From an uncultured Candidatus Saccharibacteria bacterium (GTDB taxonomy: Bacteria > Patescibacteriota > Minisyncoccia > 2-02-FULL-40-12 > GWA2-44-9), in NCBI GenBank assembly GCA_964491455.1, contig CAZBFM010000001.1, forward strand, positions 81,970-145,969: a DNA stretch of 64,000 nt, in the 5' to 3' direction. Position numbers and translations under genes: made by a program. Below are positions 2,372-18,778 of the stretch, one piece after another. Within the stretch, counting starts at the first letter, position 1. Every line of letters starts with the position of its first letter. The notes beneath the pieces were generated by a model. It did no database searches. It was not told the DNA's origin and saw nothing but the letters and a program-made list of their open reading frames with translations.

Positions 2372-4156
2372 ATGAGCGATACCGTCGAACAAATCAAGTC
2401 TCGCCTCGATATCGTCGACATCATCTCCGGGTATCTGAAGGTGCAAAAAGCTGGCCAAAACTATAAGGCTCGCTGTCCGTTTCATAACGAAAAGACTCCG
2501 TCCTTTCACATTTCTCCCGAGCGACAGTCATGGCATTGTTTCGGCTGCAATCGAGGTGGCGACATGATCTCCTTCGTCCAAGAGATTGAAGGAATTGATT
2601 TTGTCGAGACACTTCGGATTCTCGCATCGCGAGCAGGTGTCCAGATGCAAGAGCGTCATCCCGAACAGCAGAAAACAAAAGGTCAGCGTCAGGCATTGTT
2701 GGCCGTAACGGAGCTTGCCTCGAAATTTTTCGAGAAGCAATTGTGGCACAGCACGTCAGGTGCTCGCGCTCTTGCGTATCTTCGTAGCCGCGGTCTGCGT
2801 GACGAGACTATCGTCGCATGGCGCCTCGGTTGGGCACCCAATGATTGGCAGGCGCTTACGGGTTTCTTGCTCGATCAGGGCACCACGGCACCAGCCATCG
2901 TCGGCGCGGGTATGGCCATTGATAAGAATGGCCGCCCTTATGATCGTTTTCGAAGCCGCATTATGTTTCCGATTTGTGATTCCAATGGGCAGGTTGTTGG
3001 ATTCACAGGTCGCGTGTTTGGAGCTGAGGTGGCCGTTGATGGCGAACCGTTGGCAAAATACGTCAACACACCGCAGACGCTCCTCTACGATAAGGGCAAC
3101 ATCCTGTACGGTCTCGATAAAGCAAAAACCGCGATGCGCACGAATGACGCGTGTCTCCTTGTTGAGGGCAATGTTGATGCAATCATGTCATGGCAGGCCG
3201 GCGCACAACATGTGGTCGCGACGTCTGGTACCGCATTAACTCCTCAGCAGCTGAAGATACTTGGTCGCTACAGTATGAATTTGGATATGTGTTTTGATAC
3301 CGATCAAGCCGGCAAAGTTGCTACTCGGCGCGGTATCGGACTCGCCCTCGCGCAAAACTTCGCCGTGCGCATTCTGACGATCAAGGACGCTGAATGCAAA
3401 GATCCTGCAGACTATATTCAGAAATACGGTGCCGCGTGGAATGACATTGTGTCTTCGGCAACGCCTGTGTTGCACTATTACTATCAAGACGCGCTGACGA
3501 CATTTGATCCATCTTCGCCGGCTATCAAGAAGGCAATTGTTGCATCGATGGGTCCGCTCATCCGTCGTCTCCCGAGCAAAGTCGAGCAAGGTCATTGGAT
3601 CGGTCAGCTCGCGGCGCTCTTGCGCACCAGCGAGTCGGCCGTGGCGGAGGATATTAGCGCAGTCAAAGACGATCTTTCAATGTCAGAGATATTAGCTCCA
3701 CAGTCCCCAGCGCCCACGCCAGTAATTGTGCCGCTCGCACCACTGGATACCACTGGCCAGGAGCTCCTCGCTCTCCTCGTGCGACAGCCGGCACTTGCCG
3801 CTCAGCTAGGTGAGTACGCCGAGCAACTCGACCCGCGAGTAGCGGCGGTTATCACTGATCCAGCGATGCTTGCCACGGGATACGAGGGAGAGCATCGTCA
3901 TCTGATTGATGTGGCAGTTATGCGTGCTGCAGAGCTGTGGCAGGAATATACACCCCAGCAGCTCGAGGATCACATGGCTACACTGGTGAATCACATGCGC
4001 ATCAAACAACTCAAAAAGCTTCGCACAGATGTCGAACGCGACATCCGCCAGGCGGAAGCAGGTAGCGATACCCAACGCCTGCGCGAGCTCCTCGGCAAAT
4101 TTCAAGAATATTCCACTCAATTAAATCAGTTGCAGCAAATACAAACCACGACATGA
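2372..4156 (+). CDS. dnaG: DNA primase DnaG
   Basis: CHC2 zinc finger [25 protein letters not shown]; [22 protein letters not shown]; classic dnaG-rpoD gene order; start may instead be 2324. Confidence 0.9.
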
Positions 4157-5430
4157 AGAAATTACAGAAGAAGAAAGTGTCAGGCAAGAAGTCTGCAGCG
4201 AAAAAGAAAAAAGTCATCAAGAAGGCGACAAAGAAATCGTCTTCTTCAGCGCGCAAAGGCGTCGCCAAGAAGAGACCCGTAGCAAAGAAAATATCGAAGA
4301 AGGCAGCCAAGAAGGTGTCTCGCGGAGCTAAGGCCAGCGCACGCACGCCAAAACAGCCCGTGATATCAGAGTCTGCGGTTCAGGCGCTTGTGGAGAAGGG
4401 ACGTGCTCGCGGCTTTGTGACGCATGCCGAGATGTTGGCAATGTTTCCAAATATTGAAAAAGACATCGTCGGCCTCGAGACGCTCTACGAACGACTGGAG
4501 GGGATGAGTATCAATGTCATCGAATCGAGCCGCGTCTTTGATACCAAGGAGGCAAAAGTCTATGAGGAAAAGAAGCGCATCGAAACTGAATTTGATGATT
4601 CTGCCTCTGACAACGTGCAGATGTATCTCAAGGAAATCGGTCGTTACCCACTCCTTTCGGGAGAAGAGGAGATCGATCTCGCAAAGCGCATCGAGCGTGG
4701 CGACGATGCCGCACGTTCAAAGCTCGCTGTATCCAACCTTCGTCTTGTTGTCTCAATTGCCAAGAAGTACGTCGGACGATCGGCGAATCTTTCACTGCTG
4801 GATTTGATTCAGGAGGGAAACATCGGACTCTTCAAAGCGGTTGAGAAGTTTGATTATCACAAAGGGTTCAAATTCTCGACCTATGCTACTTGGTGGATCC
4901 GCCAGGCGATTACGCGCGCACTCGCAGATCAAGGTCGCACGATTCGTATTCCGGTGCATATGGTTGAGACTATCAACAAGTACCAGCAAGTTGTGCGTCG
5001 TTTGGTGCAGGATCTTGGACGCGATCCATTACCCGAAGAGACTGCCGCTGAAATGGGTATCGAAGTCGACAAGATTCGTCACATTATCAAAATCTCACAA
5101 GACACCGTATCTCTTGAGGCGCCCGTGGGCGATGAGGATGACGATTCATCCTTGGCCAACTTTGTGCCAGATGAGGAGACGATTTCTCCTGCAGTATCAG
5201 CGCAACGCAAAATCCTCAAGCAGTACATCACCGAGATCGTTAACGATCTCACGCCGCGTGAGCAAAAGATTCTCGATATGCGTTTTGGTCTTACCGATGG
5301 CGTAACGCACACACTCGAAGAGGTGGGGCGCGTATTCTCCGTTACACGCGAGCGTATTCGTCAGATTGAAGCAAAGGCGCTCGACAAAATTCGTCAGCAC
5401 ACCAATGTGGAGAAGTTGAAGAACTACTAG
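4153..5430 (+). CDS. rpoD: RNA polymerase sigma-70 factor RpoD with a Lys-rich N-terminal tail
   Basis: Region 2 [18 protein letters not shown] and [13 protein letters not shown]; region 4 [24 protein letters not shown]; the first ~60 residues are [15 protein letters not shown]-type repeats; start overlaps the dnaG stop (ATGA). Confidence 0.9.
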
Positions 5431-5669
5431 AGCTTCCGAATCTCGTCGAGATTATTATCAGGAAGATAGAGGACGAGAAATCCGATGATAATACTCAAGG
5501 GAAGAGTAATGTGGACGTCGTTGTGGAAAAATGCGCCTTCCATCCAGTCGAGGATATACCAGATGCCGCGCCAGATAAGTACAACACCGAGCACCGTGCG
5601 AAAACTTGCAGCGAAGTAAGCGAATCGATGATGAAGTCTGCGTCGTGCCATGTACATGTAGTATAACAT
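5427..5669 (-). CDS. hypothetical small membrane protein
   Basis: 80-aa ORF with two hydrophobic helices, convergent with rpoD; no recognisable motif. Confidence 0.3.
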
Positions 5670-5758
5670 ATGGCATCGACGCCTGTGGGCGTGCTCGCCT
5701 GTGGATCATCGAGGATGAATATCGGCGAAAGAAAAACGGCCCTCGTGAGGGCCGTGGA

Positions 5759-6346
5759 TTACTCTGTGAAGATGGTGTGACAGGCGCCACACCGTACTTC
5801 GTAGTCACCGAGATCGCCGGGTTGGCGCTGCTCGGTGCCACCGCGGATGCGCTGGGTATAGAGGCCTTTTCCGTAGTTGCCACGACACCGCATGCAGACA
5901 CCAGGACACACGTGCACCTTTGCTGCCATCGCAAGAAGCTTTGGCATGGGGCCGAATGGCTGTTTCGCGAAGTCCATGTTGAGTCCGGCAATTGCAATCG
6001 TGATGCGCTCATCGCTGCGTTCGTCGAGTACGTGAGCAAGCTCGAGCACAAGCCAATCGGGAAAGAATTGTGCCTCATCGAATGCGAAAAACGTTACCGA
6101 TCGATCCTCTAGAATCGCACGAAGCTCTTCGCGTGTATGGACGATGCAGGCCGGATAGCGAATCGAATTGTGCGATACGCCCTTGATGACGCGACGAGCC
6201 TGAATGAACGGCTCCTCGTCGCGACCTTCTGGCGGTCGAATTGCCGCAACCCGCTGACCTTGGTATTCAGCCTGCATGATACGGTCGATGAGCCGTAGGC
6301 TTTTGCCGCCGAACATCGGACCAGTAAAGACAACAATCTGCGCCAT
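5759..6346 (-). CDS. tdk: thymidine kinase
   Basis: P-loop VFTGPMFGGKS; C-terminal zinc ribbon CxxC..CxxC (CPGVCMRCRGN...CGAC); ATG at 6346 preceded by AAGGGAGG RBS. Confidence 0.85.
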   Translation of the reverse strand: MAQIVVFTGPMFGGKSLRLIDRIMQAEYQGQRVAAIRPPEGRDEEPFIQARRVIKGVSHNSIRYPACIVHTREELRAILEDRSVTFFAFDEAQFFPDWLVLELAHVLDERSDERITIAIAGLNMDFAKQPFGPMPKLLAMAAKVHVCPGVCMRCRGNYGKGLYTQRIRGGTEQRQPGDLGDYEVRCGACHTIFTE

Positions 6347-6424
6347 AGCGCCTCCCTTGAAAGAACGACCTGAAAAGAGTACACTGTCCAGGCGTTGTTC
6401 GCAAACGCAACAATCCAATTCCAT

Positions 6425-6496
6425 TCCGGAGTAGCTCAATGGTAGAGCAGGTCGCTGTTAACGACAAGGTTCCAGGTTCGAGTCCTGGCTCCGGAG
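6425..6496 (+). tRNA. tRNA-Asn (anticodon GTT)
   Basis: Acceptor stem TCCGGAG/CTCCGGA; D arm GCTCAATGGTAGAGC; anticodon loop CTGTTAA; T arm CCAGGTTCGAGTCCTGG; CCA not encoded. Confidence 0.8.
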
Positions 6497-7951
6497 CAAA
6501 TCAGGACGGTGTGAATATTCAGCCAGCAGATTGAATGGATTTCGTAAGGTAAACTCTAGGTTTTTACCGTTTAACTGAGCGTTCTGAAGGAAGTATCCTA
6601 AGAATTGCTGTTTTTCGGCTACTTCAGAACGGGTAAATATCTCAAGTGCCCTTTGTGCTAATGAAAGCACGGTTTTTGCAGTGATATGGTACTGCTCATC
6701 GGCATCCGTGTATTCCTGTAATTGAGTCTCAACCAGTCGCTGCTCTTCCTTGTAGCTCTTCAACTTCTTGTCGTATATGGCGTCAGTAATACGTCCGTCG
6801 GCAAGCATATCGATAAGGCGGTCGTTCATTGCTTGGATCTTATCGTAGCGCTGTCGCAGTTCGCTCGTAGCTTCCTCTTGGAAGGCCTTTTTAGCCTCGT
6901 GGGCGCGCCTGAGACTGGTAACTAGCATATCTATCCTATCCTGTGGTAGCTGAACTGATTTGAGGGCTTTTATGACTGGCTCGAGCATTTCTTTTTCATT
7001 CACATAGGTGCGGCTACAGGTGCCCTTATAATTCGTACAGCTGTAATACACGAGACGTCCCTTCTTTAGCTCAGGGGATACCATACTATTACAGTGCGTA
7101 CATCTGACGAGACGGCTCAAGATAAAGGGTCTATGTCGTGTTTTAGTTGCAAGATTGCTTTTGCGCGTCATTAGGCTCTGAGCTTTCTGGTATTTCTCAA
7201 TCGGAATCAGATGCTCGTAGTGATGCGGATACTCTTTGCCTTTGGAGATCATGGTTCCACAGTAGAACGGATCCTTTAAGACCTTCTGTATATTGCTCTG
7301 GGAAACCTTCTTACCGATCTTGCTGCGGAGGCCTCGCTTATGTATCTCGTCAGCGATTGCTCGAAAAGACCATCCTTGGAGGTAGAGATCATAGATAGAG
7401 ACTATGAAGTGGGCCCGTTCTGGATCGGGCACATGAACCTTTTTCTCCTGCATAGTAATCGAGACGTACCCAAGCTTCGGTTGGCCAATGGATTCGCCAT
7501 TGGCCAGCTTCTGCCTGAAGGTTCGTTTCACGTTGTCGCCAATCTGTAGCACGAATCCTCGAGCAAACATTACGCCCATATCCCAGCGCAGCATCTCGGA
7601 GCTGTTAGAGTCTTTGTTAATAATAAGTCCTTCTCGTATAAAATGAACTTCAACTTTGTCTGCCTTGATAAGCTCTAAGAGCAAGACTGATTCTTTAAAA
7701 CTGCGCTGCATTCGATCGATCGTTTCCACGATTAGTGCTACGCGTTCTTTCGAAGCCTTAATCAGCTCTATTATCTCCTCGAACTTCTTGCGATGATCTT
7801 TAAGGGATGATTCATCGAACTGAAACTCTTTCCATGCGTCTAGTTTCCTGCGTACTCGGTACTCACGAGAACGCTCAAGTTGTGCAGGGATGGATTGCCC
7901 ATCTCGCATCTGCTCTTCCGTTGAGACTCGAGCTAGAATTATCGCTTTCAT
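6458..7951 (-). CDS. large serine recombinase (resolvase/invertase-type integrase)
   Basis: N-terminal catalytic motif MKAIILARVSTEEQ; recombinase domain; Cys-rich zinc-ribbon region CTHCNS...CTNYKGTC; long coiled-coil C-terminus. Its 3' end overlaps the tRNA-Asn 3' half and its start overlaps the MTase stop. Confidence 0.85.
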   Translation of the reverse strand: MKAIILARVSTEEQMRDGQSIPAQLERSREYRVRRKLDAWKEFQFDESSLKDHRKKFEEIIELIKASKERVALIVETIDRMQRSFKESVLLLELIKADKVEVHFIREGLIINKDSNSSEMLRWDMGVMFARGFVLQIGDNVKRTFRQKLANGESIGQPKLGYVSITMQEKKVHVPDPERAHFIVSIYDLYLQGWSFRAIADEIHKRGLRSKIGKKVSQSNIQKVLKDPFYCGTMISKGKEYPHHYEHLIPIEKYQKAQSLMTRKSNLATKTRHRPFILSRLVRCTHCNSMVSPELKKGRLVYYSCTNYKGTCSRTYVNEKEMLEPVIKALKSVQLPQDRIDMLVTSLRRAHEAKKAFQEEATSELRQRYDKIQAMNDRLIDMLADGRITDAIYDKKLKSYKEEQRLVETQLQEYTDADEQYHITAKTVLSLAQRALEIFTRSEVAEKQQFLGYFLQNAQLNGKNLEFTLRNPFNLLAEYSHRPDLLRSQDSNLEPCR

Positions 7952-10900
7952 GTTTGACTTTTGTGGTTCATAATTAATTCTTTCTCTTCGTCACTGAGCT
8001 TGTACAGGCTCATAACGTGCATTTCAATGTTCGAAATATCATCGTCAATACTGATTTCGGGATTTACTTTTTTTTGTAGCATTACTTTTCTTACTAGATT
8101 TTCAATATTAGTAACGAGTGGAGAGAAATTTTCTTCAAAGTTGGGGATCGGTAAGGATTTAACTATTTCTGGAGAGAAGTTAATTCCACCGTCCATCGAA
8201 GAGATCTGAAACTTTTTGTCAATAAAATAAGCCATTACCTTGGAATTTAATATTCCAGTTAGTAGTTCAAGCGATTCATTAAGTTTTGGCGAGTATATTA
8301 TTGTAGTGGGTATTGTTGAGTAGAACTCTTTCTCTAAGTCAAGAAATGCCCTGAAGTGTCTTATCCCTGAAATCATTATTTTCTGAGCATCGAATAACTC
8401 GTACCTTCTCGGAAAGTGTTTTTGAAATTCATTGCACGTAACAATTGGCTTGTTAAAACTTAGTTTTAAATATTTGAATAACTGCCTCCCCCAAAGAGCT
8501 TCGTATTTACGCAGAGTGCCTGTGTTGATTAACTTCACCACCCGCTCGTCATTGTCTTGATGACACTCCTTAATTAGAGGTCGAAATTCGTACGCCTCAG
8601 ATGTGCTAAAAGATGCAAGGACGGAGAACCTATCACCCACGGTTTGGTAAAGCGAAAGTCTATCTAGAAGTTGGTCATTGTTAAATAATAAACCAAAATC
8701 CTTTAGATTGATCTTACTCCGCGGCGCAGTTGATTCCGAGTATTTTGAAATCTCAGAATAATTTCGTATTCGAATTATAGGTGTTGTCGTATTTTTTTGA
8801 AAAAGTACGACGATTGAAGATATTGAAGCTGTTTCGAAAACTTTAACGCTGGTGAAATTCGACATGCTTAAGAGGCCAGGTGCCAAGAGTTGTCTTAATC
8901 CGCCGCCGTATTCCATGGTAAGCCACTTGTTGGGAACAATGAAAGACACATTACCGAACTCGGAAAGGAGAGAGATTGATTTTTCAAAAAAGGGAACGTA
9001 AAGATCCCAAGCTCCCTTTGTTGCCGAATATATCTTTGAGAGTTTACGCCGCATAACTGGATCTGACTTAACCATATTAGCTGAATCAACATAAGGGGGA
9101 TTCCCAATAATAATGTTAAATTCCGATGTGCCGAATATAAACTCGGGATTGAAGAAGTTTGCGGATTGCTCACTATCAAACGGTCGGTATGTTTTGAGCT
9201 GCTTAGAAATTTGAGACTCGCCAAAAAGGCCCTCTCCTTGGTTAACGAGCTCGCTGTATTTTGCTCTTAGCTTTTTCTTATTATTTAGACTTTCAGTCTT
9301 AAAATATGCATCCCTGATTTCTCGGAGTTTTTTGGCTAACTGCGGGTCGTCTCCAAATGCGACTGCGCGACTCCTATCTAAGTCAATTAGCGAGTTTGCG
9401 CAAACAAATTTAAATTCAAGATTCGGTAACGGCTTAATATTTTTAGAATCCGCAGCCTCGTCAACGATGATAGATAGCCAAGTGCGAAGTCTTGCGATTT
9501 CCACAGCCATTGGCTCGATGTCGACGCCATAGATATTCTTTTCGATGATCGCAAGTTTCGTTTTATAGGAATCAAATCGTGACTCGAGACGTTCGTAAAC
9601 ACGAACTAACAACTGGAGCATTCCAATTGGAAAGGCTCCTGAGCCACAGGCGGGGTCTAACACCTTGAGCTCATCGAGTGCTTCTATGATTCCGTCCTTG
9701 TATGGTTTCCAGTCTCTGCGCCAGTTATGATCTTGGTCTTGGAAGTCTTTATCGGGGGCATCAATAAGCTGAACCAATCTTTGGTCTCTAAACTGATCTT
9801 CAGGGATTTTTGTTTTTAAATATTCACGTAGAGATTCACGGCACATATAGTCCACAATCTCACGTGGTGTATAGAACGCACCCTTTGCTTTGCGTGCTTG
9901 CTCTCCAGTGTCTTCCGTGATTTCAGCAAGGAGATTCTCGAAGATTCTTCCTAGCATTTCAGGATCAATCGCTACTTGCTGGAACTGACTAGTACTCTCG
10001 TCGGTTGTGAAGTTATAGCCATTAAGAAAGTCAAAGAGGTCATTGAAGTAGTACTTTGGGAATGAGAGTTTTGAATTTCTATACAAGTCAGTATCTCGTG
10101 CCTCAAAAAGTCCACCATTTAGGAAGGGGGTTACGTCGTCTTTATATTCACGATCGGCAATAGGAGTGTTGAGCACTCCAAAGAATAGATTTTCGAGGTT
10201 CTTTCGATAGTATTCGGAGCTATTCTCAAATGCGTGAGAATCAAAATACTTTCGATCTGGGTTGATCACACCTTTTTTGTCTAAGAACCAGCAGAAGATT
10301 ATGCGTCCGAGTAGGCGATTCGCAAATAGAGACGCATGCTTATCGTCGAGGATATTCTCTTTCGTAAGGTATTGTCGGAGAGTGATAAATCTCTCGCTGA
10401 TACCTGCGTAAAACTTCTTGTTGAGCGGCTGCAAATCGAAGCTCTCCCACAGAATGGCGTGCACTTCTTTCTTGTTACTGAAATCAGAGATACTAGCCCA
10501 TTTGGCAAGAATCTCTTGGAAGGTGGCAGTTAGCGCTCCTTTGAGCTCTAAAGTGCGAACGACGTAGTTATTACTCAAAACTATAATCACTCTGTCAGCG
10601 CTCTTTGGCACAACAAAATCTATCCCTACGTTATACTTTGAGTTAAACGACTCATCCTCAAAATTTGGAGTAAGGGCTTGGGCCCACGCAATAGTTCGCT
10701 TCGACGGTTTGGTGACGCCGTACAACTTGAAGTCTATGTTGAGCTTGTTGCCGTTATGAATCTTGTACGTTGCCTTACGATCTATAATAACTTGATCCTC
10801 AAAAAACCAAGATGCATTGGCTCTGATCTTACCATCGCTGTCGGAAAACAATTGGAAAAGATTCTGGTCATCGGGCGATACGGAATCATCTAGAAGATGT

Positions 10901-11004
10901 ATTACGGCGAGAATAACTTTCTTGGCTTGAGCAAGAGTTTTATGCTCAGATAGGGTATTGAGCTCTTTCTGTATTTCTTGGATTGCAGGCAGCGGCTTAT
11001 TCAT
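7948..11004 (-). CDS. large gamma-class N6-adenine DNA methyltransferase with N-terminal and C-terminal extensions (type IIG / PglX / DrmMI-like layout)
   Basis: SAM-binding motif I VLDPACGSGAFPIG near aa 467; catalytic motif IV IIIGNPPYVDSANM near aa 640 (about nt 9092-9103); ~450 aa upstream including a possible PD-x(n)-ELK element (GIDFVV...RTLELK); ~380 aa downstream, TRD-like. 1018 aa; AT-rich codon usage. Confidence 0.8.
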   Translation of the reverse strand: MNKPLPAIQEIQKELNTLSEHKTLAQAKKVILAVIHLLDDSVSPDDQNLFQLFSDSDGKIRANASWFFEDQVIIDRKATYKIHNGNKLNIDFKLYGVTKPSKRTIAWAQALTPNFEDESFNSKYNVGIDFVVPKSADRVIIVLSNNYVVRTLELKGALTATFQEILAKWASISDFSNKKEVHAILWESFDLQPLNKKFYAGISERFITLRQYLTKENILDDKHASLFANRLLGRIIFCWFLDKKGVINPDRKYFDSHAFENSSEYYRKNLENLFFGVLNTPIADREYKDDVTPFLNGGLFEARDTDLYRNSKLSFPKYYFNDLFDFLNGYNFTTDESTSQFQQVAIDPEMLGRIFENLLAEITEDTGEQARKAKGAFYTPREIVDYMCRESLREYLKTKIPEDQFRDQRLVQLIDAPDKDFQDQDHNWRRDWKPYKDGIIEALDELKVLDPACGSGAFPIGMLQLLVRVYERLESRFDSYKTKLAIIEKNIYGVDIEPMAVEIARLRTWLSIIVDEAADSKNIKPLPNLEFKFVCANSLIDLDRSRAVAFGDDPQLAKKLREIRDAYFKTESLNNKKKLRAKYSELVNQGEGLFGESQISKQLKTYRPFDSEQSANFFNPEFIFGTSEFNIIIGNPPYVDSANMVKSDPVMRRKLSKIYSATKGAWDLYVPFFEKSISLLSEFGNVSFIVPNKWLTMEYGGGLRQLLAPGLLSMSNFTSVKVFETASISSIVVLFQKNTTTPIIRIRNYSEISKYSESTAPRSKINLKDFGLLFNNDQLLDRLSLYQTVGDRFSVLASFSTSEAYEFRPLIKECHQDNDERVVKLINTGTLRKYEALWGRQLFKYLKLSFNKPIVTCNEFQKHFPRRYELFDAQKIMISGIRHFRAFLDLEKEFYSTIPTTIIYSPKLNESLELLTGILNSKVMAYFIDKKFQISSMDGGINFSPEIVKSLPIPNFEENFSPLVTNIENLVRKVMLQKKVNPEISIDDDISNIEMHVMSLYKLSDEEKELIMNHKSQT

Positions 11005-14000
11005 TGTTCTTCACGTAAAACAGCACACTTTCTGCTCGCTTAGGCAGTTCGATGGCGTCCTTGTCTGAGTGATTACTTACCTCTTTTGCAAGTGAGACGA
11101 GTTGTTTCAAGTTTTCGTTATATACCTCACCTTTGTTCTTCTGAGCCATTATTCTTCGTTTCAATTGACCGATGTCGCGACGATAGAAAACATCTTTTGT
11201 TTTGAACGCATCCCGAACGATATCAATTTCTAGCTCCGTATAACCAACTGAATGCATCAATCGAAGTATTTCATTCTCCTGGCCGATTAATGCGCCAATC
11301 TCTTCCTCACCAAAATATTGAACGACATGAGATTGGAGTTGCTCTTTTACCGCAATCTTATTTGCAGTTATCTTGTCTATTAATCGCTCGTTATCTTCGG
11401 GGGTAGTGCGCAACCACTCAATAGCCTGCAGTTGGGACGCTGCCTGTATTTGAGAACCGTCACGATCAATCTTTGCAAACTGAAATCCTACTTCTTCTCC
11501 AGATTCAGCAAACAAGCGGGCCATTCCAAAGACTTCAGGTTTATCCTGTCCACGAGAGCTATTGCCAGGCATCAGGGCCCACTTGCCAGCAGATATTTCG
11601 TAGATAGATTTCTTGTACTTTTCTGGGTAATTAGCGTTCGAATTAAATCTTTTTAGATCGAGAACAAATTCATCTTCAGAAAGCAGGAAGTCCGAAGCCT
11701 TTTCTGCGTCTTGAAGAGCTTGCATTCGTTTCTGAAAGTCAGCACTGTAAATATCACTCACTGAATCAGTGTATTCAATCGGGTTTTCTGGTTCATCGAG
11801 CACGGGCGTATCAGTGCCGATGGTATTCTTGATGATGTCGATCTTTCCTTGAAGTCGTTGAATCAGCTTGAGGTATGAGTCGAGCTTTGCCTCAGGCCGC
11901 ATATTATAGATGTATACTTCATCAAAGGTAGAGCCGAGACGGTTTACACGGCCATTTCTCTGAATCATACGCACTGGATTCCAGTGGAGATCGTAGTTGA
12001 TTAAAATACCTGAATCTTGAAGATTTTGACCTTCAGAGAGCACGTCCGTAGAGAATAGGTACTGTAGGGGGGTCTCTCCTTCTTTCAACTGGTACTTCTT
12101 CGATACAGGAGAGAACCGAGATGCAATGTTTTCTGCGTCGCTACGATTCTTTGATGATACGAAACCAGTGTTTGTGTGATTGATAGATGGTGCATATTTG
12201 CCGATGCTCTCTTCAAGGTAGTTGACGGTATCTGCGAAGTACGAGAACACGAGAACTTTTTTATCTGGTTGCTCTGTGCGTAGCTTTTCGAGGCGATCCG
12301 CAAAGCATTTGATCTTGGAGTCGTCTTTATTGAGAATCTCAAGTTGTTCACGAATAATCGCGACAAGCTCTTTCTCTTTTGCGAGATCTGCCTTGATAGT
12401 CGCTAGCTCGTAATTCTTGTCATCAATAACGTCGAGGGTATTTTCTTCCAGTAATTCCGCATCGATCTCTATATCTTCATCGCCTAAACTGATACTTAGT
12501 GCCTCAACATCATTGAGTGATACTATCTTCCCGTCTTTGATGCCCTTCTCGAAGAGCTCAAGCTTGTGCGCATATGTATCGAGAGATGATCGGAGTGCGC
12601 TCACCGATGATTCCATTCGCTTCAAGAAAACCGTTCGCAGGATACCGAAAATGCCGAGCTGTAAGAGAAGTCTTTTGCTCTGATCTGAACTAAGCCCGAT
12701 CTCTTTGATTTCGTCTCGTGTTTTACCGTAGTACTTACTCTGATACATCATCCAGCGATATGGAATGAAGCCGAGCATTAAGATCAACTGGAATACAAAG
12801 TACATCGGGTTTTCATCATCAAGAACCTCCTGGCCGACCCTCTTTGTTACGAGAGACAGTTGATCTGTAGGATGTTTGAGATCCTTACACTTCTCGACGA
12901 TCTCGTTGGGATCGAGGCTGTAAATAAGATTGAGGTCAAAAGACTTAGAGTCGACAGATTTTATCTTTGAAACAAGTTTCTTATCAAACTCGTACACCGT
13001 AACTTCGGGGATTACCTTGGGAAACTTTTTAGTCACACCATCGATGGTGAGTGATCCATATTCTTGCTCAATACCTTGTCGAGTACGACGAACAACAAAT
13101 GTACGGATAATTGGGGTCATTATCTGCTTGATGTAGTTGTAATCTATCTTTCCGTGACGCTTAAGATCCTGGTTGATCTTCTTTTTAAGGTTTTCGACTG
13201 CTTGATAGAAGCTGATTTGAACCGTCTGTTTTTGTTCGTCTGCAACCGTAACCTTGAGAACTTCTGCATCTCCACCAGTACCAAGAAGGATCTGGTTTGT
13301 AATATCGCTCAACTGGTTATTTATTGGCGTCGCAGTGAGGAGTAGAACGTGAGCTTTAGGATTGGCGCGTACCCATTCAAGTAATTGTCTAAACCGAGTA
13401 CCGCTCGTCTGGCGTAGGTTGTGGGATTCATCGATCACGAACAATGACACGCTGGCGATGCCATCGAGTTCTCTCTTCTGTTCAATCTCGTTGCTGTTTT
13501 GTAGGGTGTTTGGCCTGAGGCCAAACACGCCTTCGGAAGCGAGCTCTTTTTGCCATTGCTGAACTAGAGATTTTGGACAAATAACCTCTACTCGCTTTTT
13601 ACCCTCTGGGTTATCCAAGTACTGCTTCAATACGGTGATCGCTGTAGTTGTTTTTCCAAGACCAACCGAATCAGAAAGCATGGCTACGTTGTACTTACGC
13701 AGTCTTCGTAAGAGGGAGTGTACGTTTTTTTGCTGAAAATCGAAAAGAGTTTTGCCTTGTCCGCTCTTTACGGAATTGAGAGGATCATCTTGAATCTCTT
13801 CTTTGTAGAGTTCGTAGAGTGTCTTTATGTATGTCTCATATGGAGAATAAAGCATATCCCCGACAGGAGAGGATTCGAGAATCGCACCAAACTCCTCATT
13901 CCATCGCTCTGTAGTTTTGTCATTCCAAAGCTCGTCGAACCAAAACAGGTGTCCGATTTCTTGCGTCTCATTCTTCGGCTGGAATAGTACTACTCGATGA

Positions 14001-14479
14001 TCAGATTCAAGCGCATTGAGCTCGGAGTTATGCGTGAGGCCATTTTTTGTTAAGTTTGAAGATCCTATAATGCCAACTGCTTCATCTGATGCGTATGAGC
14101 CCAAGATAAAACATTTAGCATGTAAAAAGTTCTTGCGATATACGCGCACCTCTAGTTTTCCGTCAGAGATCCACTTCTTTATTTCGGTAACTACACCTCG
14201 TAGATCAGAATCAGGGGCAAGCATTGAAAGATCGAACTTGAAATCTTGATCTGGATAATCAAGTTCTGGTTGCTGGAGTTGATGGCGGGGGATGAGCGGT
14301 TCGCGTCCGATTAACAGTCGTATTTTTTCGAACTTCGTAAGGTGAGGCATCACGAGTCTCATCGCTTCAAGATCCCAATAACCAGTCGCGATAGAGATTT
14401 CATTGTGCGATTTGCTTGCCTCGATGAGAGTGTCGAGGAGGGTATTTCTTTGGTTGTCGATTATCTTGGGTAGTTTCAT
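10997..14479 (-). CDS. fusion protein: N-terminal single-HKD phospholipase-D-family nuclease domain plus SNF2/SF2 helicase
   Basis: HKD motif NFLHAKCFILGS...GSSNLTKNGL near aa 118-150. Helicase motif I DSVGLGKTTTA near aa 273, motif II VIDESHNLR, motif III LLLTATPINNQ, C-terminal helicase motifs VLVFSYFADTVNYL and LHWNPVRMIQRNGRVNRLGS. Its stop overlaps the MTase start by 8 nt. Confidence 0.8.
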   Translation of the reverse strand: MKLPKIIDNQRNTLLDTLIEASKSHNEISIATGYWDLEAMRLVMPHLTKFEKIRLLIGREPLIPRHQLQQPELDYPDQDFKFDLSMLAPDSDLRGVVTEIKKWISDGKLEVRVYRKNFLHAKCFILGSYASDEAVGIIGSSNLTKNGLTHNSELNALESDHRVVLFQPKNETQEIGHLFWFDELWNDKTTERWNEEFGAILESSPVGDMLYSPYETYIKTLYELYKEEIQDDPLNSVKSGQGKTLFDFQQKNVHSLLRRLRKYNVAMLSDSVGLGKTTTAITVLKQYLDNPEGKKRVEVICPKSLVQQWQKELASEGVFGLRPNTLQNSNEIEQKRELDGIASVSLFVIDESHNLRQTSGTRFRQLLEWVRANPKAHVLLLTATPINNQLSDITNQILLGTGGDAEVLKVTVADEQKQTVQISFYQAVENLKKKINQDLKRHGKIDYNYIKQIMTPIIRTFVVRRTRQGIEQEYGSLTIDGVTKKFPKVIPEVTVYEFDKKLVSKIKSVDSKSFDLNLIYSLDPNEIVEKCKDLKHPTDQLSLVTKRVGQEVLDDENPMYFVFQLILMLGFIPYRWMMYQSKYYGKTRDEIKEIGLSSDQSKRLLLQLGIFGILRTVFLKRMESSVSALRSSLDTYAHKLELFEKGIKDGKIVSLNDVEALSISLGDEDIEIDAELLEENTLDVIDDKNYELATIKADLAKEKELVAIIREQLEILNKDDSKIKCFADRLEKLRTEQPDKKVLVFSYFADTVNYLEESIGKYAPSINHTNTGFVSSKNRSDAENIASRFSPVSKKYQLKEGETPLQYLFSTDVLSEGQNLQDSGILINYDLHWNPVRMIQRNGRVNRLGSTFDEVYIYNMRPEAKLDSYLKLIQRLQGKIDIIKNTIGTDTPVLDEPENPIEYTDSVSDIYSADFQKRMQALQDAEKASDFLLSEDEFVLDLKRFNSNANYPEKYKKSIYEISAGKWALMPGNSSRGQDKPEVFGMARLFAESGEEVGFQFAKIDRDGSQIQAASQLQAIEWLRTTPEDNERLIDKITANKIAVKEQLQSHVVQYFGEEEIGALIGQENEILRLMHSVGYTELEIDIVRDAFKTKDVFYRRDIGQLKRRIMAQKNKGEVYNENLKQLVSLAKEVSNHSDKDAIELPKRAESVLFYVKNNE

Positions 14480-14483
14480 GAAA

Positions 14484-14657
14484 TTATTTTGTCTTACTTG
14501 CGTCTAAGAACCGTTCAAATTCTATTCGTGGGATTCGAAACTCTTTACCAATCTTGTGTGCCTTGAATCGTTTCGCCTTGATATAGCGATAGATAGTCAT
14601 GACATTTACTCGGAGTTTGTCGGCTAGTTCTTGAGCGGTATAGTAGCTCTTTTCCAT
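14484..14657 (-). CDS. excisionase-family helix-turn-helix DNA-binding protein (57 aa; not in the supplied ORF track)
   Basis: Translation MEKSYYTAQELADKLRVNVMTIYRYIKAKRFKAHKIGKEFRIPRIEFERFLDASKTK matches the Xis/AlpA/MerR-like excisionase HTH pattern; lies 4 nt upstream of the helicase start. Confidence 0.55.
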   Translation of the reverse strand: MEKSYYTAQELADKLRVNVMTIYRYIKAKRFKAHKIGKEFRIPRIEFERFLDASKTK

Positions 14658-14681
14658 ATGGTTAGTATACTTTACTTTGGT

Positions 14682-15803
14682 TTACACATCAAATCTTGGA
14701 AGTTTGTAACTTTCGAAGATATTGATCTGATTTTCGATGTCCATGACCCAGCTATGACAATCCGATCGTTGCTGCAGGCTGTTCAGCTGCTTAAGGCTAG
14801 ATGCAATACGATACCATGTTTGTTGATCGCAGATTGTTGCTATCTCCTTGCGCAATCCACGAATGCCATCCTGATCTCTTGATAGGGTAGCGAGACCTAC
14901 TTGGTAGATAGCTTCTTTTGGCGTAATCGCGCCGTTACTTCGGATTATCTTCTTGAGCGTAGCTTGCGGGCCACTGGCGGCATCATACAGGAATGCATTC
15001 TTTTCGATGACGAAGTAATTCCAATACATCTGGACTACCTTTCGCCAGAGATCTCTTCGAAAGATAGCTCTAAAGCTTGGGTTTGCCTCGAATCCCAGCT
15101 TTACCAATACAGCGGACATCTTGTTCTTGTTGACCAGCCGTACCTCGAAGCGCACGATCTCGGGTAGTGTACGTTTTATACTTGTATCTCTGAATAGTGA
15201 AAGCTGGAGAGGCAGGCGATCCTTCTCAACCGCTCGGCCGACAGAAAGTATTTTGTCTTCAGCGATTTTGTCATAGATCGCAAATGCATGTGACTTTGAG
15301 TGATACTGCAGAGCGTGGCCATTGTTTTTATATTGCTTCCTATCCATTTCCATTTTCTCCATGAGGTCTATCTTCGCTAATTCCGCGATGACGAAAGGAG
15401 CCCTGTATCCGCCCCCAATGACGATGTTCTTTGCTGGATGAATGGTAATGACAGTGGCATCGCGTATGCTTTGATCTGTAATCCGAATCGTTCTTCGCTT
15501 GAGGCATACCTGCAATCGCTCGACTACTTGTTCGAAGTCAGATTCTTCGACTTCGTCCACGCTATTTCCAAGCAGCATCTTTTGGACAGAGAACTGCATA
15601 TTGATCCACCATGCTTTGCCGCGACGATAGAGGGAGAACACGGGCATATAGATTCCTTGGCGCTTTTCGAGTGGAGTTGGATTGCTGTGATATTGAGCGA
15701 ATCCTCGTGGATCCATATTTGTCATGCTCTTGGTTGTGCCAAAATGCGACATATCTTCTATCTCAAACTGATGGCGGGGGAATGATAGGACGACGGTATC
15801 CAT
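14682..15803 (-). CDS. hypothetical protein of the island; possibly a replication-initiator or relaxase-like protein (unverified)
   Basis: 373-aa ORF lying just upstream of the excisionase gene on the same strand; AT-rich; no motif I can assign confidently. Confidence 0.45.
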   Translation of the reverse strand: MDTVVLSFPRHQFEIEDMSHFGTTKSMTNMDPRGFAQYHSNPTPLEKRQGIYMPVFSLYRRGKAWWINMQFSVQKMLLGNSVDEVEESDFEQVVERLQVCLKRRTIRITDQSIRDATVITIHPAKNIVIGGGYRAPFVIAELAKIDLMEKMEMDRKQYKNNGHALQYHSKSHAFAIYDKIAEDKILSVGRAVEKDRLPLQLSLFRDTSIKRTLPEIVRFEVRLVNKNKMSAVLVKLGFEANPSFRAIFRRDLWRKVVQMYWNYFVIEKNAFLYDAASGPQATLKKIIRSNGAITPKEAIYQVGLATLSRDQDGIRGLRKEIATICDQQTWYRIASSLKQLNSLQQRSDCHSWVMDIENQINIFESYKLPRFDV

Positions 15804-16036
15804 GTGAATTAGGAGTTATCGTTTGGTTTATACAATTGCGGGTTTATTCGCAGGTCTATCCGAAGGAGCAGATCAAACGCGCTGACGAGATTATCAGCGT
15901 CAAAGTCAACCCATTCGTAAGGTTGTTCTTTCGGTAGGTTGTCTTCTTTGGTCGGCTCTTCAAACATAAAACCTGATGGTTATGACATCAGGTTACGCTT
16001 GCTACGCTGCCTAGTATAAGAATTAATTGATACTAG

Positions 16037-16810
16037 TTAACTTCTTTTCCGCTTTTCGATTTGTCTGATTTTCCCAATATGGCCGTCATCGAGGAATACC
16101 CCAGTATCCGCAAGTTGTTTTCGGATTTGAGATAGCGACAGCTCACGTAATTCATAAATTCGATCGTTTATTTGCTGCTTCTTTTTAGTTCGGATTCCGT
16201 TGAGTAGCGTCTTCGTCGTGTCTCGATATGCAACAATGTCCTTCCAGTTTCTTGATATGAAATCCTTTAGTTGATTCTGAGTTGCCTCTGGGTTGATGAA
16301 AAGGGCAACAGGGTGGGTCTTGCTGATCTCATGAAAGTGCGCATACATGTGCTTCAAAAGTGTGTGATCAGTTTCGCTGTACCATGAAAGTTCGGAAGGT
16401 AAATGGTCGATTCTAAAGAGATCATCATGTTCGCTGCTGTATCTTAATGGCGCATCAATTATCTTATTAAAAATTAAATAGTATCTAAGTATCGATGCGA
16501 TGATCATGCTAGTTATCCCTTGTTGCCCCGTAAATGCCATACAAGTATTTATGATCCGAATAGAGGGATTCGGATTGTCTTTGCTGGGTGAAACAATTCT
16601 AACGGGGACATAGAAAAATGATTCTATTGGCTTTGTGATTTCAGCGGCATCGATTTCAAGGAATGGCATGCCACTCGGCGGTATTCCAAGGATCTCGCGG
16701 TAGTCCTTTATAAACTTAGCAACGGTATCCTTCCTGATGAATTCCTCAAAAAACTTGATCGTTTGCTGGGCGGACTTGCTAAGACCTTGGCGCGTAGTAG
16801 CGATCTTCAT
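16037..16810 (-). CDS. hypothetical protein
   Basis: 257-aa ORF with its own hairpin plus U-tract terminator at about 15975-15998 on the minus strand; AT-rich. Confidence 0.45.
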   Translation of the reverse strand: MKIATTRQGLSKSAQQTIKFFEEFIRKDTVAKFIKDYREILGIPPSGMPFLEIDAAEITKPIESFFYVPVRIVSPSKDNPNPSIRIINTCMAFTGQQGITSMIIASILRYYLIFNKIIDAPLRYSSEHDDLFRIDHLPSELSWYSETDHTLLKHMYAHFHEISKTHPVALFINPEATQNQLKDFISRNWKDIVAYRDTTKTLLNGIRTKKKQQINDRIYELRELSLSQIRKQLADTGVFLDDGHIGKIRQIEKRKRS

Positions 16811-16864
16811 GTGTCACTTTACATTACTTTACATTCCTAGTATTTTCAATAAGAAAAGTGATCT

Positions 16865-17608
16865 ATGAAAAAGGAGTTCAAAATAAAGGAACGCGGGCTC
16901 TACAAACCAGGTAGCGATGAACCCTTCAAGGTTAGCCGCTCTGGTATTGAGCTGTTCACGGAGTGTCCGTGCTGTTTTTATTTAAACAATCGAACTGGTA
17001 TTCGGCGACCCTCTGGCCCGCCATTCAACATCAACAAAGCGGTAGATACGCTTTTGAAGAAGGAGTTTAACGTTCACCGAGCAAATGCGACACCCCATCC
17101 ATATATGAAGCACTATGGCATTGATGCTGTGCCATTCCAGCACGAGATGATGAACGAATGGCGAGAGAACTTCAAAGGCGTTAGGTATCATCACAAGTCC
17201 ACGAATTTGCTTGTCACGGGCGCGGTTGACGATATTTGGGTCAATCTATCTGGGGAGCTCATTGTGGTTGATTACAAGGCGACCTCAAAGAACGAGGAGG
17301 TGAGCTTGGACGCGGATTGGCAGATGAGTTATAAGCGTCAGATGGAAGTGTATCAGTGGCTTTTGCGCCAACTTGGATTCAAAGTTTCGAATACTGGATA
17401 TTTTGTATACTGCAATGGAAGAGCCGACGCGGTGGCATTTGATGGTAAAGTTGAGTTTGATGTGGTGCTTTTGCCCTATGAGGGTAATGACGGCTGGATT
17501 GAGGATGCGCTCATCCAACTCAAAAAGTGCCTGGACAACCCCGAGACACCCGCGCCAACGAGTGACTGCGAGTTCTGCGGGTACGCTCAAGCTCGCTGCC
17601 ATGTCTAA
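16865..17608 (+). CDS. Cas4/RecB-like PD-(D/E)xK nuclease with Fe-S cluster cysteines
   Basis: D...E-x-K core AVDDIW...LIVVDYKATSK; one N-terminal Cys cluster ECPCCFY plus C-terminal C-x2-C-x6-C (CEFCGYAQARC) as in Cas4/AddB-type Fe-S nucleases. Confidence 0.7.
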   Translation: MKKEFKIKERGLYKPGSDEPFKVSRSGIELFTECPCCFYLNNRTGIRRPSGPPFNINKAVDTLLKKEFNVHRANATPHPYMKHYGIDAVPFQHEMMNEWRENFKGVRYHHKSTNLLVTGAVDDIWVNLSGELIVVDYKATSKNEEVSLDADWQMSYKRQMEVYQWLLRQLGFKVSNTGYFVYCNGRADAVAFDGKVEFDVVLLPYEGNDGWIEDALIQLKKCLDNPETPAPTSDCEFCGYAQARCHV

Positions 17609-17972
17609 TCGCTTCGGCATCCCACTCGAAGTTGAAAACAGGCTTCGAGCTCGTGATAAGTATTGCGTTTACTGCGGAAAGAAGATGGCTGCATGGTCTG
17701 TTCGAAATAGCAAAGATGATGAGACCATTGAACATTTTAGAGAAAAGGGCCCGTTTTATTGGAGGGGACATCCGAAAGCTGACATAAATAATGAACTGAA
17801 AGAAGATGACTTGGCCATATGCTGTCGTAGTTGCAATTCAAGTCGTAGTAGGTGGAAGTTGCACGATTGGTTCACGAGGCCTTATTGCAAAAATAGAGAG
17901 AGACCGATAGATGAAGGATCAGTTGCTGAACCAGTCAAGCAGTATATCCGACGGCTAGGTTTAGCAGCCTGA
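17601..17972 (+). CDS. HNH endonuclease-domain protein
   Basis: CVYCGKK...H and CCRSCNSSR zinc-finger-like HNH signature; ATG at 17601 overlaps the upstream gene by 8 nt, suggesting translational coupling. Confidence 0.65.
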   Translation: MSNRFGIPLEVENRLRARDKYCVYCGKKMAAWSVRNSKDDETIEHFREKGPFYWRGHPKADINNELKEDDLAICCRSCNSSRSRWKLHDWFTRPYCKNRERPIDEGSVAEPVKQYIRRLGLAA

Positions 17973-18025
17973 TACAGATCTGGGCTGTCATTTATCTTTG
18001 CGCATTCAGAGAGTATAGTCGTGAT

Positions 18026-18778
18026 ATGAAACGCTCAGTGATTATCGAAATACTTACACTGGTCGTTCTGATTGTCCTTTTGCTCACCATATCGGAGCAG
18101 AGCAAGCATATATTTCTCTACGCATGGGAGCGGCCAGAGGACTTTTCTTTTTTGAAAAATGTTCCTGAGCGTAGTCGTCCGACCATCATCGTTTTCTCAG
18201 GAGCCATATCAGTGCGTCGTGATGGTCTGTCTTTTTCGCAGCGGAGCAATCCCTTAAAGCTCCCAGAGGGTACTCGAGTAATACCGCTTATTCGAATTGA
18301 TAGCTACGTCAGTTCAGCTTCATTCGCGAGCTACTTAGATTCGATCGCTCAGCTCGTTGTGAGGGTCTGCGGTGGGAGCGCTGAGTGCCAGTTAGACTTC
18401 GATGATGCTCGCCCAAGCGATTTCGAGAGGTATGGGGCACTTATCGAGCGCATTGCTGCTGAGATCCCAGAGACCTCGTTAAAAATGACCGCACTCGCCA
18501 CTTGGTGTGGAGGGCAAAGCTGGCTCGATTCGCTACCAGTCGCCAAAGCGATACCTATGCTGTATCGTATGGGCATCGGTTCTCGGGCGATCAAGGCAGG
18601 GGATGTACCATCAGGATTTCTTTCGAATGCGAAGTGCCGCGGCGTTCGGGCTGTTGCTATGGATGAATTAGATTTTGATGTTCAACGATACGGAAACGAT
18701 TCTACGGAATGGTACGCATTTAATCCTCGCCCCTGGACAAGGACAGACTACGATAAATTACTCTCCGCACTTCGATGA
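18026..18778 (+). CDS. hypothetical membrane-anchored protein
   Basis: N-terminal TM helix IIEILTLVVLIVLLLTI; stop overlaps the start of the next gene (ATGA). Confidence 0.5.
   Translation: MKRSVIIEILTLVVLIVLLLTISEQSKHIFLYAWERPEDFSFLKNVPERSRPTIIVFSGAISVRRDGLSFSQRSNPLKLPEGTRVIPLIRIDSYVSSASFASYLDSIAQLVVRVCGGSAECQLDFDDARPSDFERYGALIERIAAEIPETSLKMTALATWCGGQSWLDSLPVAKAIPMLYRMGIGSRAIKAGDVPSGFLSNAKCRGVRAVAMDELDFDVQRYGNDSTEWYAFNPRPWTRTDYDKLLSALR

Follow-up and report, generated by a model that had tools for sequence, protein, structure and literature searches.

The window analysed here, a 64,000-nucleotide stretch of contig CAZBFM010000001.1 from an uncultured Candidatus Saccharibacteria bacterium, contains two adjacent genes on the reverse strand, termed HEL and MT. 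HEL codes for a fusion of a phospholipase D (PLD) domain and an SNF2-type ATPase, and MT for an N6-adenine DNA methyltransferase. Comparative evidence gives good support to the prediction that they form a restriction-modification-like defence module, in which a motor-nuclease is combined with a DNA adenine methyltransferase, and we consider it probable that the pair is a two-component, ATP-dependent restriction-modification system. The analysis establishes the domain content of both proteins, the conservation of their catalytic motifs, the obligatory pairing and coupling of the genes, the hypervariability of the specificity half of MT and the lack of other partner genes. The features of the pair are as follows.

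10997-14479, reverse strand: HEL, 1160 aa, PLD (HKD) and SNF2 ATPase fusion; predicted motor-nuclease (restriction) subunit
13994-14410, reverse strand: PLD/HKD domain (aa 24-162 of HEL), containing one HxK...GSxN motif (H120, K122, G139-S-S-N142); Pfam PLDc_2
11780-13750, reverse strand: SNF2-type ATPase core of HEL (aa 244-900), with Walker A GLGKT, DESH, TATPINN and QRNGRxNRLG; Pfam
11000-11779, reverse strand: C-terminal region of HEL, HEL_C (aa 901-1160), found only in the methyltransferase-paired subfamily; candidate methyltransferase-interaction domain
7948-11004, reverse strand: MT, 1018 aa, gamma-class N6-adenine DNA methyltransferase with a target-recognition region; predicted modification/specificity subunit
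10330-11004, reverse strand: MT_N (aa 1-225), N-terminal 225-aa domain of MT without a recognised fold; invariant N114, E116, D117, E118, G127, D129, R150 and E153
9085-10329, reverse strand: helical spacer and methyltransferase catalytic region of MT up to NPPY (aa 226-640), conserved; matches MmeI_hel and MmeI
7951-9084, reverse strand: aa 641-1018 of MT, its hypervariable C-terminal part; contains a TaqI_C-like target-recognition domain

Both open reading frames exceed 1000 codons and carry conserved motifs, so chance can be ruled out as their origin on sequence grounds. When the reading frames were called anew, the coordinates given for HEL and MT in the initial annotation were reproduced exactly, and all the helicase and methyltransferase motifs it had named were located in the translated proteins. 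The overlap between the stop of HEL and the start of MT, likewise reported there, is real and amounts to 8 nt (ATGAATAA); the two genes are thus predicted to be translationally coupled. The pair itself is therefore genuine, but its description as a two-gene module was incomplete, as it missed a gene for an HTH_17 protein and a serine recombinase gene that belong to the same transcription unit and are described below.

In HEL, Pfam domains PLDc_2 (aa 24-162; 33.7 bits, cut-off 27; E-value 3.9e-8), SNF2-rel_dom and Helicase_C (aa 729-849) are all detected above their curated cut-offs. The PLD motifs correspond to HAKCFILGS (aa 120-128) and GSSNLTKNGL (aa 139-148), those of the motor to GLGKTT (273-278), DESH (350-353), TATPINN (382-388) and QRNGRVNRLGS (840-850). 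Little or no variation is seen across 120 homologues in H120, K122, GSSN, Walker A, DESH or the arginine-finger motif, and in one of our alignments (A3) H120, A121, K122, G139, S140, S141 and N142 do not vary at all. A family-profile search against the PDB ranks RapA, Snf2, INO80 and SsoRad54 first, on the basis of which we assign the motor to true SNF2 ATPases. The fusion as a whole resembles the PADLOC ‘HKD+Snf2’ model, which matches aa 6-920 (1.6e-46); the N-terminal HKD domain of Snf2-like helicases is also represented in CDD, as cd09178. A faint Pfam match to RE_NgoFVII (E-value 0.0058) is seen in addition. Neither Pfam nor the fold search reveals a recognisable DNA-modification reader or target-recognition domain in HEL. 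The last part of the protein, HEL_C, has no Pfam match, and its AlphaFold2 model (predicted local distance difference test score, pLDDT, 78.7) has no fold match.

MT matches Eco57I (1.2e-34), N6_Mtase and MmeI_Mtase above the Pfam cut-offs. MmeI_hel (aa 229-300) is barely over its cut-off (27.3 vs 27), and TaqI_C (aa 831-953) falls slightly under it (25.2 vs 26.5 bits) and is present in most homologues. The catalytic motifs are DPACGSGAF (motif I, aa 450-458) and NPPY (aa 635-638). Profile search against the PDB returned CamA, BseCI, PglX, TaqI, DrdV and MmeI; in this search, the MmeI spacer (residues 190-264) aligns with MT aa 232-302.

Conservation along MT is strikingly uneven. In the 119 nearest homologues, aa 1-225 are 48-86% identical and aa 226-640 are 60-87% identical, but aa 641-1018, that is, everything beyond NPPY, show at most 26% identity in every one of them. 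This sharp break right after NPPY points to swapping of specificity modules, as systems selected for changed sequence specificity typically have their recognition half exchanged as a module.

A related arrangement was observed on the Lactococcus cremoris plasmid pJM1F (NZ_CP016750.2, positions 5425-10230), where a spare TaqI_C cassette in inverted orientation and an invertase of the Mpi family come after the methyltransferase homologue. It looks like a specificity shufflon, a putative phase-variable switch, and such loci have been listed among programmed inversions (Milman et al. 2023, PMC9881135). An invertible specificity cassette of this kind was looked for in the window and rejected: there are neither significant inverted repeats nor a spare target-recognition cassette.

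To see how strictly HEL and MT go together, we turned to their relatives. HEL has over 3100 homologues at E ≤ 1e-10. MT lies directly downstream of HEL in all eight GTDB genome loci for which downstream DNA is available (the 8-nt overlap is retained in six of them), in 18 of 18 metagenome loci with HEL identity of ~32% or more, on five of five Lactococcus and Lactiplantibacillus plasmids, and in four of four long contigs. The latter represent three unrelated backgrounds (loci L028 and L029 being one context): an ilv operon, a region of actinobacterial type that contains a tyrosine integrase, and a defence island with Gabija and TIR genes. The pair is alone in each of these backgrounds, as it is on plasmids of only 12-15 kb. 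Taken over these sets, pairing contexts span bacteria of the candidate phyla radiation (CPR), Bacteroidota-labelled and actinobacterial-type contigs, and Firmicutes. Genes for DUF499, DUF3780, DUF1998/DrmA, DrmB, PglZ or BrxC are present in none of the ~35 related loci examined. A survey of helicase-methyltransferase pairing, which the initial annotation had put forward as a test, thus came out in its favor, the order being kept in every relative of at least ~32% identity with downstream DNA.

The terminal regions of the two proteins follow the same pattern. HEL_C is kept in the methyltransferase-partnered relatives, including those from Lactococcus (query aa 1-1157 aligned), but is not detected in PLD-SNF2 proteins that are ~26-31% identical to HEL and sit in other systems; these lack the last ~260 aa of HEL. 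Correspondingly, the methyltransferases found beside distant PLD-SNF2 proteins have no counterpart of aa 1-225 of MT. When 1.84 billion representative sequences were scanned exhaustively with HMMER, MT_N gave only 160 matches; every full-length one comes from a protein of 970-1150 aa that begins with MT_N (residues 1 to ~225). In the plasmid collection, MT_N is confined to five records, all of which also encode full-length HEL. In the sets examined, HEL_C and MT_N thus appear to be family-specific and to co-occur exclusively; for this reason, we consider them to be the candidate contact between the two proteins. The sole MT_N match in a much larger protein (P0402, 2447 aa), examined as a possible HEL-MT fusion of the ‘Rosetta stone’ kind, turned out to be an SLH/Ig-repeat surface protein and was discarded as a false positive. 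As to carriage by phages, 50,697 phage records yielded only three weak matches.

Separately, one type of locus with a distant homologue deserves a description. On a Bacillus cereus plasmid (NZ_AP022916.1, positions 3140-16873; locus L033) and on the Acinetobacter plasmid pMsp65 (positions 8004-17973; L032), a PLD-SNF2 protein ~27% identical to HEL heads a cluster consisting of helicase, DUF4391, methyltransferase and DEAD helicase genes. The B. cereus cluster directly follows drmA and a DUF1998 gene, and looks like a composite DISARM-like locus.

It might be argued that HEL and MT act independently of each other, MT as an orphan or regulatory adenine methyltransferase and HEL as a PLD-helicase nuclease in its own right (a SauUSI-like Type IV enzyme, or a protein of repair or remodelling), and were brought together by the clustering of defence genes. 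Stand-alone PLD-helicase restriction enzymes such as SauUSI do exist, and distant PLD-SNF2 homologues occur in many different contexts. However, mere clustering does not readily account for the strict order and start/stop overlap across CPR, Bacteroidota-labelled, actinobacterial-type and Firmicutes contexts, nor for the exclusive co-occurrence of HEL_C and MT_N, and an autonomous nuclease would have to do with no recognisable modification reader or target-recognition domain. We therefore give this explanation very little credence.

How, then, might the two proteins of a restriction-modification system work together? MT would be monomeric, with one swappable target-recognition region as in MmeI, CamA and PglX, and would read a short, probably asymmetric site, methylating host DNA at this site, probably on one strand. 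At an unmethylated site, bound MT would instead recruit or activate (license) HEL, probably through MT_N and the C-terminal tail of HEL. HEL would then translocate on double-stranded DNA by means of its ATP-driven SNF2 motor. As HEL has a single HKD motif, it would have to pair with a second HEL molecule, and the meeting of the two would create one PLD active site. Single-HKD proteins that dimerize to form one PLD active site include Nuc and BfiI. A dimeric PLD site is also known for SauUSI and for MtsD of MANTIS, a system also described as Gao_RL and as Type-2 DUF499-centred BREX-related (BR) (PMC12839542; Shaw et al. 2026, preprint 10.64898/2026.09.23.753747). This site would cut the DNA at a distance from the recognition site and would need no metal ions. 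The analogy of Type III, Type ISP and MANTIS systems suggests that cleavage may require two sites, perhaps in inverted pairs.

A further step, which we take tentatively although it is quite possible, is that the family constitutes a distinct class of ATP-dependent restriction-modification, in which an MmeI/Eco57I-like methyltransferase and specificity subunit would use MT_N, a domain not described before, to dock and license a dimerizing PLD-SNF2 translocase-nuclease without the AAA+ loader of MANTIS; it would be the minimal form of defence by a methyltransferase and a PLD motor, mislabelled as ‘type IIG’ by current tools.

Several points weigh against a division of labor in which HEL cuts and MT licenses. 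In HEL, an invariant glycine stands where the canonical HxK(x)4D motif has its aspartate; in Nuc, this aspartate is structural and is not known to be catalytic. No fusion of HEL and MT that would prove their physical coupling is found among the MT_N homologues. For the two-gene family, the literature offers bioinformatic mentions only and no experimental study that we could find, and a methylome motif, a restriction phenotype or a HEL-MT contact is reported for no member. Methylation by MANTIS needs two further proteins, and a two-gene version may, by analogy, work differently; cleavage by MtsD itself has not been reconstituted in vitro. Finally, the acidic cluster of MT_N (E116, D117, E118, D129 and E153) is invariant, and most of the invariant residues of this domain (N114, E116, D117, E118, G127, D129, R150 and E153) are conserved out to Lactococcus. 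If this cluster is an unrecognised nuclease site, as it could be, MT would be a type IIG enzyme able to act by itself.

The last point leads to an explanation that has to be taken seriously. According to it, MT is an autonomous type IIG/IIL enzyme with MT_N as its endonuclease, and HEL is an accessory, responsible for example for processive degradation after the first cut or serving as a backup against anti-restriction. Indeed, the PADLOC model that fits MT best bears the label ‘REase_MTase_IIG’ (derived from REBASE; 1.6e-148) and its match, starting from aa 101, reaches into MT_N. Moreover, given the alignment of the MmeI spacer, MT_N corresponds in position to the nuclease domain of MmeI, and the invariant cluster includes N114 and R150 next to the acidic residues. 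Nevertheless, a nuclease is hard to discern in this domain. The N-terminal ‘PD..ELK’ element suggested earlier corresponds to D129 and E153-L-K155 of MT, and its lysine is not conserved: in 17% of close homologues K155 is replaced by H, R, N or C, and in distant ones by H, N or S. The MT_N model (pLDDT 91) gives no Foldseek match at E ≤ 1e-3, either to PD-(D/E)XK or to any other nuclease fold, and Pfam detects no nuclease domain even at E ≤ 5. With a variable lysine, no fold match and no Pfam domain, we found no support for a PD-(D/E)XK nuclease, although the acidic cluster may still mark a nuclease site. In the lactococcal homologue, pLd8 orf34, a restriction domain was likewise not found (van Mastrigt et al. 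2018, PMC6098607). In addition, MT_N never occurs without HEL in the sets examined, which would be unexpected for an autonomous enzyme, and HEL retains all its nuclease and motor motifs. Self-sufficiency of MT is therefore unlikely in our estimate, although it keeps appreciable weight.

The two-component system proposed here appears to travel on a mobile element, whose remaining features are listed below.

6425-6497, forward strand: tRNA-Asn(GTT), identified with ARAGORN and Rfam; integration target and left border of the element
6458-7951, reverse strand: large serine recombinase, 497 aa; Pfam Resolvase, Recombinase and Zn_ribbon_recom; integrase of the cassette
14484-14657, reverse strand: HTH_17 protein, 57 aa; Pfam HTH_17, 1.8e-14; controller-type regulator or excisionase/recombination directionality factor
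14682-15803, reverse strand: U373, 373 aa; conserved protein upstream of the HTH_17 gene in CPR cassettes, outside the core pair

The genes are tightly packed: the HTH_17 gene ends 4 nt before the start of HEL, and the start of the recombinase gene overlaps the stop of MT by 4 nt. The last 13 codons of the recombinase gene are antisense to the 3' half of tRNA-Asn. Its end is antisense to a tRNA gene in two related loci as well (tRNA-Asn at 12766-12842 in L004 and tRNA-His at 8486-8559 in L006). The three independent loci suggest that the cassette family targets tRNA genes, with the integrase reading frame running into the target. At tRNA-Asn, the G+C content drops from ~52% to 40-46% and stays low to at least 17 kb. 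The same genes recur in relatives. The HTH_17 gene is directly upstream of HEL in six CPR loci (L003-L006, L009 and L035), and recombinase homologues are found downstream of MT in five loci (L003, L004, L006, L009 and L049); among HTH_17-bearing CPR loci with enough downstream DNA, four of five have the recombinase, and so does the window. The HTH_17 protein matches mad1, the small regulator of MADS (PADLOC, 3.4e-11), and may be either a controller protein or an excisionase. Homologues of U373 that are 31-33% identical occupy the same position in L003, L004 and L005; this protein has no match in Pfam, NCBIfam, PADLOC or PHROG and is absent from relatives outside CPR. Neither an att repeat nor a displaced 3' half of tRNA-Asn was found, and the right border lies somewhere within ~15.9-22 kb. 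Overall, the HTH_17 gene, HEL, MT and the large serine recombinase gene are predicted to form a compact integrative element inserted at tRNA-Asn in the genome of an ultra-small, Paceibacterota-like CPR bacterium. The earlier proposal of a mobile carrier is thereby borne out, as the serine integrase abuts the tRNA gene.

The element also seems to have moved lately. HEL copies at least 90% identical (a 90%-identity cluster) are present in metagenome-assembled genomes labelled Jorgensenbacteria, and a 93% identical copy occurs in one from Saccharibacteria (locus L001), which indicates that the cassette was recently transferred between CPR lineages. The host of the window, whose source contig is 652,729 bp long, is itself Paceibacterota-like: proteins named from ‘Candidatus Paceibacterota’ metagenome-assembled genomes belong to the 90%-identity cluster of its DnaG.

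Several other genes of the window were noted in passing. In the low-G+C region beside the cassette, positions 16865-17608 (forward strand) code for a Cas4-like PD-(D/E)XK protein (PDDEXK_1, 2.4e-13), overlapped in another frame by a reading frame at 17373-17972 (forward strand) with weak HNH/PtuB-like PADLOC matches (1.4e-4). They are followed on the forward strand by two genes with a 4-nt overlap, at 18026-18778 and 18775-21321, for proteins of 250 and 848 aa. Both proteins are without significant matches in Pfam, NCBIfam, PADLOC and PHROGs; the G+C content of this segment (18026-21321) varies between 41 and 50% and is in part under the flanking ~50%. On the other side of the tRNA gene, positions 4153-5430 (forward strand) code for a sigma-70 family protein with an N-terminal extension of ~70 aa in which lysine and alanine are extremely abundant.

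The HEL-MT family is widespread, being found in CPR bacteria, on Bacteroidota-labelled and actinobacterial-type contigs and on plasmids of lactic acid bacteria. For the locus studied here, PADLOC reports only a ‘type IIG’ enzyme, and the PLD-SNF2 gene hits only the generic ‘HKD+Snf2’ model and is not placed in any system. Should the PLD-SNF2 protein be the real nuclease, such loci form a separate class of ATP-dependent restriction enzyme, and the pair would be the simplest experimental model for the licensing of a PLD-motor effector by a methyltransferase. To our knowledge, CPR bacteria largely lack CRISPR. The present locus would represent a portable restriction cassette, carried by an integrase and moving between CPR lineages.

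Comparison with known systems begins with those to which the pair has been, or could be, assigned. The initial annotation described it as DISARM-like. Class 1 DISARM does share the domain kinds, having an SNF2 helicase, a PLD nuclease and an N6-adenine methyltransferase with long extensions. However, it also has DrmA and DrmB (DUF1998) and a separate PLD protein (DrmC); here the former two are absent and the PLD domain is fused to the motor. The lack of drmA/drmB-like genes, already stated in the initial annotation, holds for the neighbouring genes out to ~24 kb. The DrmD model (NCBIfam NF038317) reaches 147.6 bits on HEL against a cut-off of 610 and aligns with the C-lobe alone, and the PADLOC DrmMI match of MT (1.9e-20) is far weaker than that of the type IIG model (1.6e-148). 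As a family assignment, DISARM-like therefore does not stand. The PglX model likewise gives MT 85.8 bits against a cut-off of 500, and neither PglZ nor BrxC of BREX is encoded by the window neighbours or in related loci; the HmaA match of HEL is partial (1.7e-22, C-lobe only). On these grounds, with scores far below curated cut-offs or partial matches, membership in DISARM, BREX, Dpd, Zorya and Hma was rejected. So was membership in Type-2 BR/MANTIS, as its defining DUF499 ATPase and DUF3780 protein were found neither among the window neighbours nor in related loci with Pfam-annotated genes.

One could still regard the pair as a reduced class 1 DISARM or DUF499-centred BR/MANTIS system, with the other genes lost or located elsewhere in the genome. 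Partial hidden Markov model matches of HEL to DrmD (e-34 to e-43), BrxHII and HmaA, and of MT to PglX, DrmMI and mad2, speak for such an origin. Moreover, Type-2 BR/MANTIS systems, too, use an N-terminal HKD-SF2 effector with an N6-methyltransferase, and Bacillus cereus plasmids carry a distant PLD-SNF2 homologue next to drmA and a gene for a DUF1998 protein. Yet the curated cut-offs for DrmD and PglX are missed several-fold, and DrmA/DrmB, DUF499, DUF3780, PglZ and BrxC are lacking in the related loci just as they are next to HEL and MT. The pair also stands alone on 12-15 kb plasmids. In addition, the PLD-SNF2 proteins of multi-gene systems are only ~27% identical to HEL and have no HEL_C, and their methyltransferases have no MT_N. 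Descent by reduction thus seems highly improbable.

By its sequence features, the pair belongs to the family typified by orf33/orf34 of the Lactococcus lactis plasmid pLd8, for which the same two-gene architecture has been described (van Mastrigt et al. 2018, PMC6098607). The family features are present: the order is identical, a protein with PLD, SNF2 and Helicase_C domains precedes an Eco57I/TaqI_C methyltransferase of ~1000-1150 aa, and the latter, like MT, is without a recognisable restriction domain. The family, known from bioinformatic annotation, is also found on L. cremoris pJM1F and L. plantarum plas2. Compared with the plasmid members, HEL is 34.7% identical over aa 1-1157 (E-value 0) and MT_N is 27-28% identical (E-values from 5e-11 to 7e-10). 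Our locus differs from the pLd8 type in residing in a CPR host instead of a lactic acid bacterium, and from its pJM1F relative in that the pair is flanked by an HTH_17 gene and by the gene for a large serine integrase, located at a tRNA gene, instead of being accompanied by a spare recognition cassette and invertase. The 2018 study reasoned that the PLD-SNF2 protein supplies the restriction domain missing from the methyltransferase, ‘type IIG’ in REBASE, and noted the resemblance to class 1 DISARM (PMC6098607); the family was noted again, beside programmed inversions, in 2023 (PMC9881135). Thus, of the translocase-nuclease plus methyltransferase architecture proposed in the initial annotation, the restriction-like module is supported, with relatives in defence islands and on plasmids, but the novelty is not: a 2018 publication had already given both the architecture and its likely meaning. 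Of possible relevance, should its locus belong to the family, is a study of Prevotella intermedia, in which a ‘type IIG’ gene located beside an SNF2/RAD54 helicase gene was cloned and the methyltransferase gene alone produced m6A at GGYGAB.

Among experimentally studied systems, MANTIS is the closest analogue in its effector-plus-methyltransferase logic. The resemblance is architectural only: an N-terminal single-HKD PLD domain fused to an SF2 ATPase, and a self-marking N6-adenine methyltransferase. In the effector helicase of Type-2 BR systems, the N-terminal HKD nuclease replaces a TUDOR domain (Rakesh & Krishnan 2026, PMC12839542). The MtsD dimer seen by cryo-EM has one PLD site with the catalytic residue His122 (PMC12839542; 10.64898/2026.09.23.753747), and H120 of HEL is at the same N-terminal position. 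The methyltransferase of MANTIS, MtsC, hemimethylates, and methylation requires the DUF499 AAA+ ATPase (MtsA) together with the small protein MtsB (DUF3780/3870), which as a stand-alone DUF3780 protein is present in 98% of Type-2 BR loci (PMC12839542). Compared with MANTIS, MT carries the family-specific MT_N, and HEL carries HEL_C.

With type IIG/IIL enzymes (MmeI, DrdV and the Eco57I family), MT is homologous in the helical spacer, the gamma-class methyltransferase and the C-terminal target-recognition region. It differs from MmeI and DrdV in that their N-terminal PD-(D/E)XK nuclease is unrecognisable in MT and in that a PLD-SNF2 partner gene is obligatory. HEL, in turn, resembles NgoAVII/CglI and SauUSI, which also have a single-HKD PLD nuclease that needs dimerization and is driven by an SF2 ATPase. 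In NgoAVII/CglI, the PLD protein bears a B3-like DNA-binding domain, the ATPase is separate and the methyltransferase is of the C5 type. SauUSI, unlike HEL, is a modification-dependent Type IV enzyme with a target-recognition domain of its own.

Finally, the order of functional parts (nuclease, ATP motor, gamma-class adenine methyltransferase and target-recognition domain) is that of Type ISP enzymes such as LlaGI and LlaBIII (PMC2790908). The expected behavior is also alike, with an asymmetric site, methylation of one strand and translocation-coupled cleavage away from the site. In the PDB searches, LlaBIII was not matched by sequence. A Type ISP enzyme is one polypeptide, its nuclease being a PD-(D/E)XK domain of the Mrr family and its SF2 motor of a different kind, whereas the present system has two proteins, a PLD domain and a true SNF2 motor. 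By analogy, HEL and MT would functionally amount to a Type ISP enzyme split into two polypeptides, with PLD in place of Mrr and SNF2 in place of the ISP motor.

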